Part shown: positions 9,001 through 21,000 of the stretch, one piece after another
How positions within the stretch are numbered: the stretch's first letter is position 1
How the letters are laid out: each line of letters begins with the position of its first letter
Origin: Candidatus Nanohaloarchaea archaeon
GTDB taxonomy: Archaea > Nanohalarchaeota > Nanosalinia > Nanosalinales > Nanosalinaceae
Direction: 5' to 3'
DNA length: 25,280 nucleotides
Assembly (NCBI GenBank): GCA_042217695.1
Contig: JBDGSE010000012.1
Location: 1-25,280 of the forward strand
Program-made: the position numbers

Positions 9001-12000
9001 GAATCCGCCGGGTATAAGGTAGGAGTCGTAGAACTCGGCCCGGAGCGTGTAGTTTGTAAACCTCTGTCTGGCGGTATCATTCCGGTACAGTTCATCGATG
9101 GCGCCCAGATGTTTGCCCAGGTTCAACCAGCCCTTGTACAGCACGGAGAAGGTTGCCGGATACTTTGTGTCTCTCTTGCAGGCGCCTTTAACCCTGGATG
9201 AGAGCCCACTGCATACAACAGATACAGAACCTTGGAAATCCGGTAAAGACTCGTTGGCCTGGAGAGCGGAGCTCACATACCCGCCAGTGAGGGTGGCATC
9301 CAGCAATCCTCTCCCCGCCACTTTAAGCCGTTTCTCCAGCCGTGAACCGGTTATCTCGCCCGGGCTCGAAATCCTCTTTTCCAGGTCGTTCTGCTCGTAA
9401 AAGGTTTCAAAGGCTGCCTCGGGGTACTCAGCGTCCTGGTTGACAGGGTCTGCCATCCGGTTGATGTAGAGTGAGAGGCCGGCTCCGGAGAGGTAGAACA
9501 GGAGTACAAGGAAGAGCAACCCGGCTCCGATTTTTTCCGCCGACGAACGGGATAGAAGCCTCTTCCTGAAGTCGTTAAGGTGCGGAAGGCTTCCGGCAGG
9601 CATACAGAAAGTTGTGAACGGTGATTTAAAGGTGTTGGAAGTCTTCAATCCCTGCCGACCGTCAGCACCGGGACCTCAGAGGTCCGCACGATCTTTTCAG
9701 TGGTGCTGCCAAGCAGCATCCGGTCTATACCGGTCCTCCCGTGGGTGCCCATGACCACCATGTCGATGCCTTCCTCCTGGACGTAATCGTTTATCTCGCT
9801 GTGCGGAGTGCCCTTGCGTACCACGGTTATGGCGTTTATACCCTGGTCAGCGGCCTTCTCCTCCAATTCCTCTGTGGTCTCCCTGCCAGCCTCCTCCAGT
9901 GCGCCCGAGATATTGGATACGAAGTCCGAGACGCTCTCTATCCGGATATCGGCCACGTACAGTATGTGAAGCTCGGCGCCGTACTTATCCGCCAGCTCTT
10001 TCGCGTGTTTGAATGCCTTTTCCGCGCCCTCACTGCCGTCGGTCGGCAGCAGAATTTTCTCGTACATCCTCTCCCCCCCGTTACATTATTGGAGGCGGAG
10101 CTATTTAGAAGTAAAGGAAAAGAAAGGTTAGAGGTTGAACTCCAGCGGCGTCTCACTGGAGATGTTGTCGCTGACCGGGCACCTCTGCTTTACCTCTTTC
10201 AGAAGCTCCTCTTCCTCGGCAGGGCTGTCCGTCTCCAGGTCCAGGTCGACCTCGATGGACTGGTAACCGGCTCTCGGTTCATCCGATTCACCGAAAAACT
10301 TCGCCGGGTCGAGGATTCCTTCAACTGAGAGATCAAGAGATTCTACTTCGACACCGCGTTCAGAGGCAACCTGACGCAGGGTAGCGTTCACACACCCCGA
10401 TAGAGCACCCAGCAGGTATTCGACCGGGTTAGGTCCGGCGTTTTCACCGTTAAGGTCCTCAGGTTCGTCTATAACAAATTCAAAGTCTCTGACAGAAACC
10501 CTGGTTTTCGTGGCTGTTTTTCCTTCTGCTTCAACACTGAACTTCAGGCTTGAGTCTTCTGGCATATTATCTCTCTTCTCCGGGATGGTAAAAAACCCTT
10601 ACTGTTTGAAACCTCCAACAAAAATGATTAGTTGGTAAACGAGAAAGAGTTCTCCATGGAGTTCGAGGTCGAGACCGGTTCCAGCGAGATCGTGGATATA
10701 ACCAGCGAGGTGGAATCCCGGATCGATATAGAGGATGGGCTATGCCTGGTACATGTACCTCACACCACCGCAGGCCTGGTGGTGAACGAGAACGAGCCCC
10801 GCCTCCTGGAGGATATCGAGTCCACACTGGAAAGCCTGGTTCCATCCGGCGGCCACGAACACGACAAGATAGACGACAACGCCGCGGCCCATCTGAAGAC
10901 GATGCTGCTCTCCAGCAGCGTCACTTTGCCGGTGGAAAGCGGAGGCCTGGACCTGGGAACGTGGCAGAGCGTTATGCTGGTCGAGAGCGATGGCCCGCGG
11001 ACCAGAAAAATACGTCTGAAGACGCTAACCAGCAGGTAACCTCACCTTTTAATTCGTTCCCGGCTAATTCACAGAAACATGAGAGATGTCAAGGTAGAGG
11101 TTTTCTACTCGGAGACCTGCCCGAACTGCCCTGCCCAGAAAGAGCTCGCGAAAGATTTTGAGTCGGACGAGGTAAAGGTCACGATGACCAACGTCGCCAG
11201 AAAGAACATCAGGGCGAAGAAACACGGCGTGAAATCCGTTCCAACCACGATCATCAGTGGACCAGGTCTTGAACAGAAAAGCGGTTTCCGGGGGGTCATG
11301 TCGGAGGACAAGCTTGAAACAGCTATAGAGGTCGCCAAGGGAGAAAAAGACGAGGAAGCCCTTGAATCAAGCATAGGAGACAGTATAAAAAGTATAATGC
11401 CCTTCTAGAAAGGAAACAACTCGCCAAAGGTATGGAGAACTCCAGCGTATAAATCAGGGCGGCGGAGTCTCTTCTAGTAGTTTTTTTATCTCTGTAGCGC
11501 CTCGAGATTTTCCAGGCTTATTTTGAAGCCTCTGAGGGCCCTGAATATATTTTAGAATATTTTTAATAGCTCGAACACTGCTGAAACATATTTTATCAAT
11601 CCCGGAGACGGGTTTAAAACCATAGAAAACCTTTTTAATCAGCAACTCATTCAAATTAAACTATGACAACTGTACTGTCAATAGAGGACTCTGGTTTTGA
11701 GAGAAAAGTGATTCAGAACGCACTTGAGGAGGAAGGATACGAATTCGTGGGAGCCAGTAATGCCGAGGAAGGTCTCGAAAAATACGAGGAGGTAAATCCC
11801 GACCTCGTGCTTCTCGACATCCGGCTCCCCGACAAGGACGGGATAGATGTACTGAAAGAGCTGCACGAAGAGTACTCCGACCCCAAGGTCATCATGGTCT
11901 CCATCGTCCGGGAGGAGGAGACCAAGGAAGAGGCAAGGGAGATAGGAGCCATTGACTACGTGGAAAAACCTGTCGAGGAAGATGAACTTATTGAAGCGAT

Positions 12001-18000: not shown

Positions 18001-21000
18001 TGACGGCCTCCCTGCAGGAGGAGGCCGCGGAATACAGCCAGGTGATGGAGGAAGCTCGTTCGGGCGATCTGACAGCCCGCGTAGATCCGGAATCGGACAG
18101 CGATGCGATGGCCTCCGTGGGGAAGTCCATAAACACCCTGCTGGAGGAACTGGAGACCATCGTCGTCCGCATCCAGGGATTCGCAGAGGATGTCTCCGCT
18201 GCAAGCCAGCAGCTGGACGCCAGCTCGGAGCAGGTAGAAGCCTCCAGCGAGGAAATCAGCGAATCCATGGAGGATATCAGTTCCGGCATGCAGCAGCAGA
18301 CCGCCACGCTCTCCAACGCGAAGGCACAGATGCAGGAGGTGTCGGCAGCCGTACAGCAGATAGCCTCCTCGGTTGAGGAAGTGACACAGAAGTCGCAGCA
18401 GATAGCAGAAAAGGGAGAGACCGGCAAGGAACTCTCCTCGGAAGCTATCGACGAGATGAACACCATGGAGGAGAGAAGCGAGAAGGTGGCCGACAAGATA
18501 CAGGAACTCGACGACCAGATGGAAAAGCTCGGAGACATCGTGGACCTGGTATCCGACATCGCCGAGGAGACAGACAACCTGGCGCTGAACGCCTCGGTCG
18601 AAGCGGCTAGAGCCGGAGAGGCCGGTGAAGGGTTCGCGGTAGTAGCGGACGAGGTCAAGAACCTGGCAGAAGAGACCTCCGAATCGACGGAGGACATGCA
18701 GGAAGTGATAAACAGCGTTCAGGAGTCCACTTCAGAGGCTGTTGAAGAGGTGCAGGAAATGCGTTCCTCGGTCAACGAGGGTATGGACTCCGTGAAGGAG
18801 AGCCTCGACGCGATGGACGAGGTCGCGGACCAGGTCGAGGAGGCAAACGCAAGCATACAGGAGATCGACAGTGCGGTGGACCAGCAGGCCTCTGCCACGG
18901 ACGAAGTAGTGGACGAAGTAGTGGAGGTCTCGGATCTGAGCGAGGAGGCCTCGGAAGAGGCCCAGGAGGTCGCTGCCTCCCTGAACGAACAGACCTCGGC
19001 TATCCAGGAGATCTCCTCCAGCGCAGACTCGCTCTCTAATAAGGCAGTCAAACTCAGGGACCTGCTGGACGAGCTAAACGTCAAAGAGGACTAAACCACT
19101 TTTAAGCTTGGAAAAAGTGAATAGTAGTTGTGGACTATGGGAGACTTCGAACTTAACGAGAAACAGAGAGACGAACTACAGGAACTCGGGAACATAGGCT
19201 CCGGCCGGGCATCCCGCTACCTCTCGGAAATAGTGGACCACAAGGTAGATGTTGAAGTACCGGCCGTGGAGATAACGACCCTGACCGGGCCAGAGACCGC
19301 ACAGGAGATATTTGATAAACCGGCGGATACAGAGGTCACCGCCGTACTGATGCCCATATCTAACCCCTCCGGTGTCATCACATTCAGTTTCACACAGGAG
19401 GACTACCTGAAATTCCTGAAGCTGTGGGGTGAGGGAAGCACCGGTGACCGCCAGAACTTCCTGGAGACCAGTAAAGAGGTATCCGAGTTCTACCTGGAGG
19501 CGGCACAGAGAGTACTGGGAATCGAAATCGAGAAGGGTACCCCGAGACTGATCAGCCTTGACCTGAACGCCCTGATGATCCATTCCTCTGCTGCACTCAC
19601 GCAGGCAAATTCACTGATAATCAACTCTGCCATGACCATCAAGGATATAGAATGCGAACTTACCCTTTTCCTGGAGCTCGAGGACGTGGACGAGGTACTT
19701 GAGGCGCTTGAAGACCAGGTATAGTCAGAGACGAGACAGGATCCTGTCCCTGAACTCTTCCTCATCCAGTGTTTCGATGTTCTCCTCCCTGGCGTCCTCC
19801 ATCTTTGACTCTCCCAGGTTATCGCCGACAACAAGGTAGTCGGTCTCGCCGCTCACCGAAGACGTTACATCCGCGCCGTGGTTCTCCATGAGACGCACGA
19901 CCTCCTGCCGCGTGTAATCCTCCAGCGCCCCGGTAAAGACAAATTTGAGACCTTCAAGTTCTGTCCCCTGATCCGTACGGAAAGGTTCCACGCCCTCTTC
20001 AAGCAAGGCCTCCACGACCTCATCGCTCGAACTGAAAAAGTCCTCAATGCTTTCCGCGATCTCCGGGCCTATACCATCTATCTCCTCGATATCCTCTTTG
20101 TCCGCGGACCTCAGCTCCTCGAGCGTGAAGTTTTCTGCAAGCAGCCGCGCAGTTTCGCTCCCAACATGCCTGATGCCGAGAGCGTATATGAACCTGTCGA
20201 GCTCCACCTCCCGGCTCTCCTCTATCTGTGCAAGCAGTTTCTCCGCGGATCTTTCCCCGAACCTCTCGAGTCCCAGAAGCTCCTCTTTTTCCAGGCGGTA
20301 GAGGTCAGGGATCTCCTCAACGAGACCGGTCTCTACCAGCTGGTCGGCCACCTCTCCTCCTATGCCCTCTATATCCATCGCCTCGCGGGAGGAGAAGTGT
20401 TCAAGCGAGCGTTTGAGCTGGGCAGGGCAGGACACGCCCCCCGTGCAGTAGTGGTACTTCCCCTCCTGTATCACTTCTGAACCACAGACAGGGCATTCCC
20501 CCGGCATCGAGAACTCGCCTTCCCTCTCCAGGACCTCTACTACCTCTGGTATGACCTCTCCCGCGCGTTCCACGCGGACCCTTGAACCTTCGGCAACCCC
20601 GAGTTCCCGGGCCATGGATCCGTTGTGGAGTGTGGCCCTCGAAACGGTCACACCTCCTATATCCACGGGCTGTAGGAGGGCCACGGGAGTCAGTTTCCCT
20701 GTCCGCCCGACCTGTACAGTTATCTTCTCCACGACCGTCTCCTCCTTCTTCGGCGGGAACTTGTAGGCGAAGGCCCATCGTGGGTGTGACGCGGTTGACC
20801 CTATCTCATCCCTTTTTTCGTGGTCGTTCACCTTGGCTATCACGCCATCTATCTCGTATTCTAGATCGTCCCTCCGGTCCACCATCTCCTCGCGGTAGTC
20901 AATGAACTCCTCTATCGAGTCCACTAAACGGTTGTACTCACTGGTCTTCAGTCCAAGAGATTCAAGCATCTCCACTGCCTCGACATGGCTTTCTATGTCC

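Follow-up and report, generated by a model that had tools for sequence, protein, structure and literature searches.

A chemosensory gene set in a nanohaloarchaeal lineage in which no CheF or archaellum gene scores over cut-off

Our analysis supports the presence of a complete-looking Che pathway in a nanohaloarchaeal lineage that lacks CheF, archaellin, ArlCDE and any bona fide ArlI. The window analyzed is 25,280 nucleotides in length (positions 1 to 25,280 of contig JBDGSE010000012.1); it belongs to the nanohaloarchaeal bin G000, which is 757,484 bases in size, consists of 44 contigs and is 82.7% complete. Judged by its genes, the pathway is very probably functional and independent of CheF and the archaellum. 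That a type IV filament is the target of its output is a tentative assignment. Taken as a whole, the statement that this is a self-contained and functional F1-derived Che module of a DPANN-type lineage, target included, has a little less than an even chance of being correct.

For comparison, 70 genomes of the order were sampled; 28 of them reach a completeness of 90% or more, and 8 consist of a single contig. None of the che-bearing genomes is closed, the most complete reaching 91-92%. In the counts of Che and archaellum genes, presence means a score over the curated family cut-off.

Organization of the che cluster

The nine che genes listed by the initial annotation were all recovered in place, each scoring above its curated Pfam cut-off (Table 1). 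Its reading of the cluster as an operon did not hold: because cheW is located on the minus strand, the cluster is not a single operon, and at least three transcription units are needed. The A/T-rich boxes in the four non-coding gaps are putative promoters. GC dips to 0.467 at 11001-12000, around the gap 5' of cheY1. The start of cheW is likely the Met at 13131, and the longest frame opens with TTG at 13161. Pfam search gave no match for the + strand ORF opposite cheW (12698-13153), nor for any of the 12 antisense ORFs within the cluster, which are 113-335 aa in size.

Table 1. Genes and non-coding gaps of the che cluster
Feature	Position	Strand	Evidence
gap 5' of cheY1	11409..11662	.	A/T-rich TTTTAA-type box, read by eye
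cheY1	11663..12016	+	Pfam Response_reg 100 bits
cheY2	12026..12382	+	Response_reg 107 bits
cheW	12385..13161	-	Pfam CheW 110 bits, residues 16-147
gap between divergent cheW/cheB	13162-13277		A/T-rich TTTTAA-type box, read by eye
cheB	13278..14261	+	CheB_methylest 195 bits; Response_reg 39 bits (N-terminal receiver)
cheA	14262..15827	+	Pfam Hpt, H-kinase_dim, HATPase_c, CheW
cheC1	15831..16445	+	CheC 62.7 bits in two stretches; CheX 36 bits
cheD	16449..16928	+	CheD 94.8 bits
gap 5' of MCP	16929-17042		A/T-rich TTTTAA-type box, read by eye
MCP receptor	17043..19094	+	MCPsignal 128.8 bits, Cache_3-Cache_2 64.4, HAMP 29.6
gap 5' of cheC2	19095-19127		A/T-rich TTTTAA-type box, read by eye
cheC2 (divergent CheC-like)	19128..19724	+	CheC 28.5 bits, cut-off 22; alternative ATG start 19137

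CheA, CheW and the two CheY proteins

CheA is of P1(Hpt)-P3-P4-P5 architecture and P2 is missing; Pfam search found no P2 domain (PF07194) in CheA of G000 or of 31 nanohaloarchaeal relatives (P0002-P0032). Across 13 aligned sequences, H47 and the residues of the N, G1 and G2 boxes do not vary. The search of G000 for HATPase_c gave CheA and nothing else at E<=1e-3; no other histidine kinase was thus detected in the genome, which is new here. In the CheA tree, the nanohaloarchaeal proteins form one clade with a support of 100. Its sister (95) consists of P2-less CheAs including Altiarchaeales-labelled proteins, followed by one Aenigmarchaeota-labelled group (96). The wider neighbourhood of CheA in the tree is made up of proteins from archaea, Bacillota and Thermotogota. 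Different from these proteins, the haloarchaeal host-type CheA (Haloplanus) falls outside the nanohaloarchaeal P2-less clade. This P2-less clade, which joins Altiarchaeales- and Aenigmarchaeota-labelled proteins and is not of the haloarchaeal host type, is new here.

At the C-terminus of CheW, an acidic linker is followed by one C2H2 zinc finger (∼12388-12459), whose C-x2-C-x12-H-x4-H pattern was read from the translation; residues 235-258 score 19.7 bits against zf-C2H2_4, under the cut-off of 27.

Two CheY types are kept across 16 aligned sequences, both retaining D52, K102 and P103; the conservation of two distinct types is new here. In cheY1, E-D replaces D-D at the acid pocket and 'SIVRE' replaces 'SAVGQ'. 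In every aligned nanohaloarchaeal locus, and on the Aenigmarchaeota-like contig L146 too, its orthologues group apart from cheY2. It scores 81.5 bits against NCBIfam CheY_Halo, under the cut-off of 200, and its best match among solved structures is P. horikoshii CheY (6ER7, 77 bits). cheY2 is canonical, with DD, D52, S80, F99 and K102 in its own numbering; the acid pocket and K-P-F are invariant. With 113.5 bits it is also below the CheY_Halo cut-off, and its best solved relatives are the CheY proteins of T. maritima (1TMY, 98.9 bits) and P. horikoshii (98.7 bits).

Receptor and adaptation proteins

G000 has a single MCPsignal match, the MCP of the cluster. Its two TM segments, located as hydrophobic segments, span approximately residues 17-45 and 189-222; the Cache domain is extracellular and is followed by HAMP. 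The signalling hairpin is long, ∼44 heptads, with the tip at residue 520. MCP residues 383-674 align with T. maritima TM1143 (2CH7); the alignment covers 292 residues and is interrupted by a single gap of 7 residues. Five consensus modification sites are present, four QQ and one QE.

The cheB product is a receptor methylesterase/deamidase, scoring 264.6 bits against an NCBIfam CheB subfamily (cut-off 293); its translation contains GSSTGG, QHM and GMGKDG stretches, which we take to hold the catalytic Ser, His and Asp. The translation of cheC1, encoding one CheY-P phosphatase, contains two D/S-x3-E-x2-N-x22-P motifs, presumably the motif that defines the CheC active site; in cheC2 the first motif alone is intact. 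Against CheC_Thtogales, cheC1 scores 141.5 bits, below cut-off, and cheC2 scores 52.7 bits; cheC2 orthologues were found in the other nanohaloarchaeal che loci. The cheD product is a receptor glutamine deamidase and CheC partner (CheD_Thtga 142.7 bits, below cut-off).

CheR was not found in G000, as previously annotated: the best profile score, 10.9 bits, is not over cut-off, and tblastn with two related CheR queries gave a best E of 1.4. It is also absent from three other che-bearing members of the family, and loss of CheR in this family is supported. The earlier count of CheR in one of five che-bearing genomes stands as to its rarity and its position next to cheB, but the number is now two of the eight others, both of the same genus. 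For a pathway that adapts, having CheB but no CheR is unusual.

Candidate targets of the Che output

The initial annotation had wired CheY to a type-IV-pilus-like machine and counted three T2SSE/T2SSF loci in G000. Three T2SSE ATPases are over cut-off, but T2SSF genes adjoin two of them only; the third is on one 5.6-kb contig without T2SSF. The C25-type ATPase, 73-85% identical across 119 relatives among the matches listed, adjoins two T2SSF halves as well as pilins that carry class III signal peptides. The G000 bin yielded no prepilin peptidase. The genomes give the wiring itself no backing. FlaI-like T2SSE ATPases occur in 70/70 genomes of the order and che in 9/70; che-bearing genomes possess 2-5 of these ATPases each, no more than other genomes, and no ATPase class among the 70 is specific to them. 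Around the nine che loci, the fetched flanks contain no pilus gene. In 61/70 genomes pili clearly work without Che, and the C25-type pilus locus is also present in these 61 che-less genomes. In the text available to us, Makarova et al. 2016 (PMC4858521) found no evidence of Che regulating non-archaellum type IV pili in archaea.

The missing genomic link between che loci and pili would suit a pathway that controls gene expression, host-contact or surface remodelling, or metabolism instead of a filament, a reading that we consider rather unlikely. The routes open to such a pathway would be CheY-P acting on a cytoplasmic partner, the CheW zinc-finger tail, or cross-phosphorylation of two orphan receivers. 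CheA is the sole histidine kinase detected, yet two receivers lie outside the cluster, REC-HalX on contig C2 and one small REC on C44. However, HalX is over cut-off in 5/70 genomes, four of them che-less, and is missing from the other eight che-bearing genomes; therefore it is not the conserved output. Likewise, the C2H2 finger is found in G000 and G040 only among eight aligned CheW proteins. KaiC-like and DUF7504 genes adjoin the che cluster of the Aenigmarchaeota-like relative, archaea are reported to possess ACF-type systems (PMC13747009), and classical temporal adaptation is weakened without CheR. Against these points, the extracellular Cache domain, the 44-heptad receptor and CheC/CheD/CheB form a taxis-type tool-kit.

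Absence of CheF and archaellum genes

G000 contains no CheF-arch match at E<=10 and no Arch_fla_DE match; its best Arch_flagellin score is 12.9 bits (cut-off 29.5), and its best archaellin-like ORF is a Pilin_N pilin, 26.9 bits, over the Pilin_N cut-off. That che-bearing relatives also lack CheF and archaellin was borne out in a larger set, with 0/8 for both in the other che-bearing genomes (best archaellin 26.9 bits). Across the order, CheF, archaellin, ArlCDE and the ArlI equivalog (best 441 bits vs 550) are each over cut-off in 0/70 genomes, and all four models are over cut-off in archaellated control archaea. Since these 70 include the at least 90% complete and single-contig genomes, no assembly gap accounts for the absence. 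DPANN proteins are fast-evolving, and very divergent CheF or archaellin could score under Pfam cut-offs.

We regard it as improbable that a FlaI-like locus is a hidden or strongly divergent archaellum, building a rotary swimming filament to which an unrecognisable adaptor relays CheY, or that cheF and the archaellum genes fall within the 8-29% still missing from the che-bearing bins, all of which are incomplete. The C25-type ATPase does score 403 bits on the ArlI model, relatives are named 'flagellar protein FlaI' by JGI, and the platform halves of its locus best match ArlJ models. Sub-threshold archaellin-like matches (19-28 bits, 146-198 aa) occur in 18/70 genomes, including che-bearing G009, G010 and G020. 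In the parts available, Xie et al. 2022 (PMC9563170) describe archaella encoded by other nanohaloarchaea, and PMC11803251 also speaks of them. However, none of the 70 genomes, 8 single-contig ones included, passes any of the four cut-offs; no KaiC-like (arlH-like) gene adjoins any of the three G000 ATPases; the pilins of the C25 locus have Pilin_N-type N-termini, and the weak archaellin match of G000 is itself a Pilin_N protein. The presence of this locus in che-less genomes also argues against an archaellum.

To call this the first Che system in archaea that has no CheF link was an overstatement. In the portions available, Schlesner et al. 2009 (PMC2666748) had already reported Methanosarcina che2 regions without CheF, and che genes without CheF in M. 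barkeri.

Distribution and island behaviour

CheW is over cut-off in 9/70 genomes of the order and in 3/49 other genomes of the family, exactly reproducing the earlier counts. The recurrence of the gene set also holds, now in fetched loci of eight other genomes from three families; among species with the full set, CheA identity is 48-85%. Che genes of the phylum were already in print, as the initial annotation said: in the text available, Zhao et al. 2022 (PMC9765267) suggest host-seeking and report no che genes in their 14 representative 'Ca. Nanosalinaceae' genomes, and the main text holds no words starting archaell, pili or motil.

The che-bearing G040 and the closed, che-less G039 are of the same genus, with TopoVI-A proteins 92% identical. 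Their flanks are collinear, and the 8.1-kb che block of G040 corresponds to 1.6 kb in G039. The cluster is thus a ∼8-kb present/absent block between two congeners, which is new here. In the congeners G040 and G041, the cluster layouts differ and CheA identity is 55%, compared to 70% for G040-G000.

The patchy distribution, the lost CheR, the GmrSD restriction gene within the cluster of G019 and G020, and the usual loss of such systems in reduced genomes could point to a decaying block, acquired or inherited, that no longer signals, having lost CheR, CheF and the archaellum as partners. This is very improbable: none of the nine ORFs is disrupted and the catalytic residues are still in place, the full set is retained despite the divergence of CheA, and 8 kb of useless DNA is unlikely to last in a 0.76-Mb genome. 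Although G000 is a 44-contig bin, there is hardly any chance that the che contig is foreign to it, for example from the haloarchaeal host, given that the cluster lies between housekeeping genes on this 28-kb contig, that its tetranucleotide composition is ordinary for the bin (r = 0.924 vs 0.943 +/- 0.028 for random 8-kb pieces), that the closest CheAs are all nanohaloarchaeal-labelled, on contigs of eight other bins, with haloarchaeal CheA outside the clade, and that a congener has collinear flanks.

Proposed pathway

We propose that the module is of F1 (flagellar/archaellar) ancestry, owing to its 44-heptad TM1143-like receptor, CheC together with CheD, and the place of CheA in the tree. The single Cache-domain receptor would sense a small molecule outside the cell, and CheW would link it to the P2-less CheA, which may phosphorylate both single-domain CheY proteins. 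CheY-P would be dephosphorylated by CheC1 and CheC2. The QQ/QE sites of the receptor are probable substrates of CheD and CheB, and adaptation may proceed without CheR methylation, through CheC-CheD feedback. Because the che block contains no effector gene and comes and goes as a whole, the CheY-P target would be something present in every nanohaloarchaeon, most likely the highly conserved FlaI-like type IV filament machine, which either CheY type could contact. This indirect argument is the sole one for pili. Phosphorylated CheY may then bias filament assembly or activity, and with it host finding or attachment.

A tiny salt-lake symbiont thus keeps a whole, intact chemotaxis set without a swimming filament or known adaptor, which makes the target of its signal testable.

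The che cluster and its surroundings

All nine genes of the che cluster score above the curated Pfam cut-offs, therefore the cluster reported in the initial annotation is real, and its gene boundaries stand as described. It was also taken there for a single operon; however, cheW lies on the minus strand, and four A/T-rich gaps with TTTTAA-type boxes, read by eye as putative promoters, separate at least three or four transcription units. Contig C4, which carries the cluster, is 28,094 bases in length, of which the window covers the first 25,280, and belongs to a bin of 757,484 bases in 44 contigs, with an estimated completeness of 82.7%.

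Coordinates of the che genes and of other features discussed in the text (C, contigs of the source genome unless another genome is named; L, fetched loci)
Feature	Sequence	Position	Strand	Remark
cheY1	C4	11663-12016	+	Pfam, over curated cut-off
cheY2	C4	12026-12382	+	Pfam, over curated cut-off
cheW	C4	12385-13161	-	Pfam, over curated cut-off
C2H2-type zinc finger of CheW	C4	12388-12459	-	C-x2-C-x12-H-x4-H
cheB	C4	13278-14261	+	Pfam, over curated cut-off
cheA	C4	14262-15827	+	Pfam, over curated cut-off
cheC1	C4	15831-16445	+	CheC, 62.7 bits
cheD	C4	16449-16928	+	Pfam, over curated cut-off
Receptor, Cache_3-Cache_2/HAMP/MCPsignal	C4	17043-19094	+	Pfam, over curated cut-off
cheC2, divergent	C4	19128-19724	+	CheC, 28.5 bits
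NAD-dependent DNA ligase	C4	19725-21746	-
PolX with PHP domain	C4	21743-23428	-
Flanking ORF	C4	3427-3747	-	no Pfam match
Flanking ORF	C4	7110-7436	-	no Pfam match
Flanking ORF	C4	8449-9648	-	no Pfam match
Flanking ORF	C4	10567-10845	-	no Pfam match
Flanking ORF	C4	10742-11161	+	no Pfam match
Flanking ORF	C4	24452-25258	-	no Pfam match
REC-HalX protein	C2	22202-22819 (L157:8202-8819)		HalX, 31.4 bits, over cut-off
Stand-alone REC, 114 aa	C44	18226-18570 (L158:6226-6570)
C25-type ATPase	C25	36267-37970 (L010:8267-9970)
Class III signal-peptide pilin	C6	35083-35472
Hydrogenase gene region adjoining the G041 che cluster	C33 of G041	L052:10207-17977
FAD-oxidoreductase/phytoene-desaturase-like gene	G039	L160:8645-9987		apparently split
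GmrSD-type gene	G019	L056:6059-7426
GmrSD-type gene	G020	L057:3127-4491
FIST-domain protein	G020	L058:1240-2547
KaiC-like and DUF7504 genes	Aenigmarchaeota-like contig	L146:18562-19946

Housekeeping genes precede the cluster (thiI, a hexapeptide transferase, thyA, folA, a TtuA-like gene, usp, osmC and thioredoxin), and genes for an NAD-dependent DNA ligase, PolX and a nucleotidyl transferase follow it. The ligase, directly 3' of the cluster, is of the bacterial type, with adenylation, OB, Zn, HhH and BRCT domains; with PolX it makes up a repair pair that is notable in a DPANN genome. Six flanking ORFs, 92–399 aa in size, have no Pfam match at E<=0.01, and none of the 12 antisense ORFs inside the cluster has a Pfam match; Rfam and tRNA scans of the window returned no family and no tRNA. 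In composition the che block is ordinary for this genome: its GC content is 0.537 (genome, 0.547), and its tetranucleotide correlation is 0.924, compared to 0.943 +/- 0.028 for random 8-kb pieces. Among public sequencing runs, the stretch is present in two DNA runs, both of one salt-lake study and one of them possibly its source; no RNA run carrying it is listed.

The Che proteins are intact in sequence

The phospho-accepting histidine of CheA (H47) and its kinase N, G1 and G2 residues are invariant in 13 aligned relatives, and both CheY proteins keep the phospho-acceptor aspartate and the K-P pair (16 sequences). CheA is the sole HATPase_c-type kinase found in the genome. Between its Hpt domain (residues 8–106) and its dimerisation domain (residues 150–205), it contains about 40 acidic residues and no P2 domain (PF07194). 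In the translations, the pattern D/S-x3-E-x2-N-x22-P occurs twice in CheC1 and once, N-terminally, in CheC2; this is the active-site motif of the CheC/CheX/FliY phosphatase family, to which both proteins belong by this motif. The best NCBIfam models for CheC and CheD are the Thermotogales ones, and CheY2 resembles archaeal and Thermotoga CheY.

The receptor, the only MCP of the genome, crosses the membrane with two segments and carries an extracellular Cache domain; of its five consensus modification sites, four are QQ and one is QE. No shift of such sites towards Gln was seen in the CheR-less lineages when nine receptors were compared. The signalling hairpin of the window's receptor aligns with that of Thermotoga TM1143, a 44-heptad receptor, over 292 residues with one 7-residue gap; long receptors of the 44-heptad class are a feature of F1 systems. 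The CheW domain is followed by an acidic, helical C-terminal tail, which is common to all nanohaloarchaeal CheWs. At the C-terminus of the window's CheW, a C2H2-type zinc finger is joined through an acidic linker of about 85 residues; among eight aligned CheWs, the finger is present only in that of the source genome and that of G040, a relative in the same family, and is missing from the other six.

No CheF or archaellum model over its cut-off in 70 genomes of the order

In the source genome, CheF-arch (PF04283) has no match at E<=10 and Arch_fla_DE has none. The best archaellin-model match, with 12.9 bits, is a 129-aa protein that scores above the Pilin_N cut-off instead. None of the three T2SSE ATPases has a KaiC-like (ArlH-like) gene for a neighbour. 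Such KaiC-like ATPase genes do occur elsewhere, three in a cluster on contig C43 (4,983 bases) and a fourth, as a fragment, at the end of contig C10, in no case next to a T2SSE ATPase.

Because an 83% complete bin cannot by itself prove absence, we surveyed all 70 genomes of the order Nanosalinales, of which 28 are at least 90% complete and 8 consist of a single contig. CheF is found in 0 of 70 at E<=0.01, and none occurs in the che loci of the relatives. Archaellin (PF01917) is over the cut-off in none; 18 genomes have sub-threshold matches of 19–28 bits at E<=1e-3. ArlCDE (PF04659) is likewise over the cut-off in 0 of 70, as is the NCBI equivalog for ArlI (NF058587), whose best match reaches 441 bits against a cut-off of 550. 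Each of these four models was over its cut-off in archaellated control archaea, the CheF model in three archaea. The archaellum test covered PF01917, PF04659, NF058587 and, in the source genome, the KaiC neighbours.

CheR is over the cut-off in two of the eight other che-bearing genomes (G009 and G010, one genus), where it lies directly beside cheB. In the window's family it is found in none of the four che-bearing members (G000, the source genome, and G037, G040 and G041), and other genes occupy the site upstream of cheB. The best CheR match in the source genome is 10.9 bits; tblastn searches with the CheR of G010 and that of an Aenigmarchaeota-like contig gave a best E of 1.4. The initial observation is confirmed and strengthened, CheF and archaellin staying below the cut-offs in all 70 genomes of the order. 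Judged from gene content, the independence of the che pathway from CheF and the archaellum holds.

Nanohaloarchaea are said to encode archaella in the accessible text of two papers (PMC9563170, PMC11803251); these reports probably rest on the FlaI and FlaJ names that pipelines give to pilus-type genes. The JGI label on relatives of the T2SSE ATPase of contig C25 reads 'flagellar protein FlaI'.

Distribution and lineage of the Che module

Nine of the 70 genomes have CheW over the cut-off; four of these, the source genome among them, belong to the window's family (50 genomes), three to a second family, f4 (10 genomes), and two to a third, f5 (8 genomes). The window's family is a tool code that was equated in the initial annotation with GTDB Nanosalinaceae; the NCBI taxonomy uses other family names, and labels two che-bearing members 'Candidatus Nanohalobium sp.' At their che loci, the relatives carry cheB-cheA-cheC-cheD together with another cheC, a pair of cheY genes and cheW; there are one or two receptors, with a soluble one of about 355 aa frequently among them, and no extra gene is conserved. 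The ORFs of the relatives were simply taken as the longest ones, so that a few were placed on the wrong strand; for G040 the locus was read a second time.

P2 is missing from CheA in all 31 nanohaloarchaeal relatives (P0002–P0032, 48–85% identity). The next-best matches, 524–550 aa in length with 39–42% identity, are also without P2; two of them are labelled Altiarchaeales, and one cluster has an Aenigmarchaeota-labelled member. A quick IQ-TREE analysis of 63 CheA sequences, for which support is given by SH-aLRT alone, unites all 15 nanohaloarchaeal CheAs in a single clade (100). Its sister group (95) consists of 11 sequences without P2, the Altiarchaeales ones among them; an Aenigmarchaeota-like group is next out (96). 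The CheAs of Haloplanus, a haloarchaeon, and of Bathyarchaeota fall outside, and the whole set is nested among those of Bacillota and Thermotogota. The tree places the window's CheA with F1-like sequences, its bacterial references being a few generic CheAs with no Tfp or ACF reference among them. The module thus did not come from the haloarchaeal host; it is part of a lineage common to DPANN-type archaea.

One further locus was found in a metagenome scan, on the Aenigmarchaeota-like contig (L146). It encodes a P2-less CheA, CheR, four CheY, three CheC, CheD, CheB, CheW and a soluble MCP, in addition to a ParA/MinD-like gene and the KaiC-like/DUF7504 genes that flank the cluster; no CheF lies within 10 kb. 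The window's two CheY types both have counterparts on this contig, recognisable by E-D, 'LDLRLPD' and 'SIVRE' for CheY1 and by D-D, 'DIVM' and 'SAVGQ' for CheY2. It follows that the design with two CheYs is old. As the clade includes Altiarchaeales- and Aenigmarchaeota-labelled sequences, these data suggest that the CheF-less, P2-less Che system with two CheY types is wider than one phylum.

The che cluster behaves as an accessory block

Three members of one genus (by tool codes) differ in this region. G040 and G041 both bear che, but their CheAs are only 55% identical and their cluster layouts differ; the CheA of G040 is 70% identical to that of the source genome, with which it shares the gene order and the zinc-finger tail of CheW. 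The third member, G039, is a closed genome without che genes; its TopoVI-A is 92% identical to that of G040. The flanks of the two genomes are collinear at 69–89% nucleotide identity; between them, the 8.1-kb che block of G040 corresponds to 1.6 kb in G039 holding a split FAD-oxidoreductase-like gene. As the two genomes differ by it between collinear flanks, the che cluster behaves as a discrete accessory block, and the pair offers a natural comparison for experiments.

Other features of these loci were also recorded. The G039 gene, FAD-oxidoreductase/phytoene-desaturase-like, is apparently split into ORFs of 306 and 146 aa. On the G041 locus, the che cluster adjoins genes for the large and small subunits of a [NiFe]-hydrogenase, an FlpD/MvhD-like protein, an HdrA-like Fe-S flavoprotein, HycI protease, TusA and HypF, which is an unexpected metabolism for a nanohaloarchaeon. 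In both f5 genomes (G019 and G020), a GmrSD-type restriction endonuclease gene lies within the che cluster, between the MCP/cheW part and cheA; in G020, a FIST-domain protein is encoded near the cheC/cheD part.

Comparison with known systems

The euryarchaeal F1 CheF-ArlCDE system of Halobacterium, Haloferax and Methanococcus has the same MCP-CheW-CheA-CheY core with CheB, CheC and CheD, and the same long receptor of about 44 heptads. Different from it, the window's genome has no CheF, archaellin, ArlCDE, bona fide ArlI or CheR, its CheA lacks P2 and lies outside the haloarchaeal branch, and a second, distinct CheY type is conserved. In that euryarchaeal kind the CheF gene usually lies in the che region. 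By sequence, the pathway resembles in its working an F1 chemotaxis system in which CheC and CheD give feedback, and four defining features of the archaellum-coupled archaeal kind are missing from it (P2, CheR, CheF and the archaellum). In Bacillus subtilis and Thermotoga maritima, adaptation through CheC, CheD and CheY-P operates with CheR also present. The two-site CheC and the CheD are the same here, whereas CheB is kept without CheR; CheC-CheD feedback would offer adaptation without methylation.

Che-like systems control type IV pili in several bacteria, such as Pil-Chp in Pseudomonas, Frz in Myxococcus and Pix/Tax in cyanobacteria. In these systems CheA phosphorylates single-domain CheY-like proteins, more than one per system, which bias pilus activity. 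Unlike them, the window's cluster has no pil genes in or beside it, its CheA is without additional Hpt or receiver domains, and no PATAN-type regulators were found. No retraction ATPase is known for archaeal pili.

The initial annotation regarded the cluster as the first archaeal Che system to work without the CheF-archaellum link. This priority cannot be kept in full: Methanosarcina has che2 regions without CheF, and M. barkeri has che without CheF, according to the accessible text of Schlesner et al. 2009 (PMC2666748). The same text states that these species keep archaellins and a full fla set, and that the M. barkeri region has no cheC. Compared by gene content, che2 is likewise a CheF-less archaeal region with an unassigned output, whereas the window's genome lacks an archaellum altogether and has two genes for CheC. 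The claim to novelty should be narrowed accordingly.

Within the phylum, che clusters (cheAWCDBY) and the idea of host seeking were published for 'Ca. Nanohalalkaliarchaeaceae' and 'Ca. Nanoanaerosalinaceae', with no che in 14 representative 'Ca. Nanosalinaceae' genomes, in the accessible part of Zhao et al. 2022 (PMC9765267). The clusters of f4 and f5 are probably those of that study, going by an inferred mapping of family codes to names. The phylum and gene list are the same; in the present survey, che occurs in 4 of the 50 genomes from the window's family. That part of the paper (PMC9765267) does not discuss that archaellum and CheF are missing, nor a CheA without P2, the pair of CheY types or the island behaviour.

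What the Che pathway may control

Three T2SSE ATPases are encoded in the source genome. On contig C25, the ATPase (T2SSE and PilB3_C) is accompanied by a platform protein split into two T2SSF halves and by three small ORFs with R/K-G-hydrophobic class III signal-peptide N-termini, one of which matches DUF7266; these sequence features make a convincing candidate pilus locus. At the head of the locus stands a gene for a coiled-coil protein. Contig C36 encodes a divergent 754-aa ATPase and a 713-aa T2SSF protein, while the ATPase on C26, a short contig, adjoins prefoldin and ftsY. Class III signal-peptide pilins are found at the C25 locus, on C6 and on C7. Peptidase_A24 (prepilin peptidase) has no match at E<=0.01 in this 83% complete genome; the enzyme is either in the missing 17% or divergent. 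The C25-type ATPase has 119 listed relatives with 73–85% identity, all from nanohaloarchaeal bins and metagenomes, and is thus far more conserved than CheA (48–85%).

The proposal that CheY acts on one of these pilus-like machines is supported in part: the independence of the pathway from CheF and the archaellum stands, and the wiring to a pilus lacks a genomic link. T2SSE is present in 70 of 70 genomes and che in 9; the flanks of the che loci contain no T2SSE, T2SSF or pilin ORF. Universal ATPases and che loci without a neighbouring pilus gene leave no specific link between Che and pili. T2SSE ATPases number 1–5 per genome. With 2–5, the che-bearing genomes do not exceed the others, and the idea of an additional ATPase of this type that goes with che was rejected, none being seen in the 70 genomes. 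A complex prediction for CheY2 (39-row alignment) with the C25 FlaI-like ATPase (40-row alignment), run without controls, gave no verdict either way, its two scores being 0.00 against a mark of 0.32.

One indirect argument speaks for the pilus: a block that comes and goes whole and carries no effector can act only on a target already present in every recipient, and the conserved filament machine is the sole apparatus of motility or adhesion type that these genomes contain. Our leading reading is that CheA would phosphorylate single-domain CheY-like proteins and these would bias pilus activity, as in the bacterial pilus systems. In its full form, a DPANN-specific Che island of about 8 kb (P2-less CheA, two CheY types, no CheF) would move among nanohaloarchaea and plug directly into the universal FlaI-like type IV filament machine, giving some symbionts chemically guided host finding or attachment. 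We put this forward tentatively, as a proposal with perhaps one chance in four of being right.

Control of gene expression would be another output. Two orphan receivers lie outside the cluster, the REC-HalX protein and the stand-alone REC, which adjoins glycosyltransferase and glycogen genes; for both, CheA is the sole visible kinase. As a general conserved output REC-HalX was rejected, since five of the 70 genomes have HalX over the cut-off and four of these five have no che. The C2H2 finger of CheW, a further candidate, is confined to the source genome and G040 among the eight aligned sequences. The Cache sensor, the long receptor, CheC, CheD and CheB fit the steering of a surface organelle better than gene regulation. 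DUF5828, encoded beside the che cluster in G037 and G011, was considered as an adaptor and rejected, as it occurs in 43 of 70 genomes and is not che-specific. That the symbiont's CheY acts on the host's CheF-archaellum switch through a cell-cell bridge is extremely improbable.

Our literature search found no paper noting the joint absence of archaellum and CheF in che-bearing nanohaloarchaea, and none on a P2-less DPANN CheA clade or on the output of nanohaloarchaeal Che. A survey states, in its accessible text, that DPANN has no chemotaxis system (PMC9680633), and that of Makarova et al. 2016 reports no evidence for archaeal Che acting on a non-archaellum machine (PMC4858521). The accessible texts of two 2026 papers, on F1-archaellum coupling (PMC13747009) and on archaeal type IV filaments (PMC13705601), do not mention nanohaloarchaeal che genes.

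DPANN archaea are usually viewed as passive, stripped-down riders on their hosts. Here, an ultra-reduced symbiont keeps a conserved sensory pathway with no known organelle to steer, and the intact pathway costs 1% of a 0.76-Mb genome. Che being kept without a swimming organelle, these cells would sense gradients and act on the information. Once found, the target would show either by what route archaeal Che reaches a machine other than the archaellum or that Che signalling has a new role outside motility. If the filament reading is true, Archaea would have a first example of Che acting on a type IV filament, and no sensory behaviour of a DPANN cell would have been described earlier.
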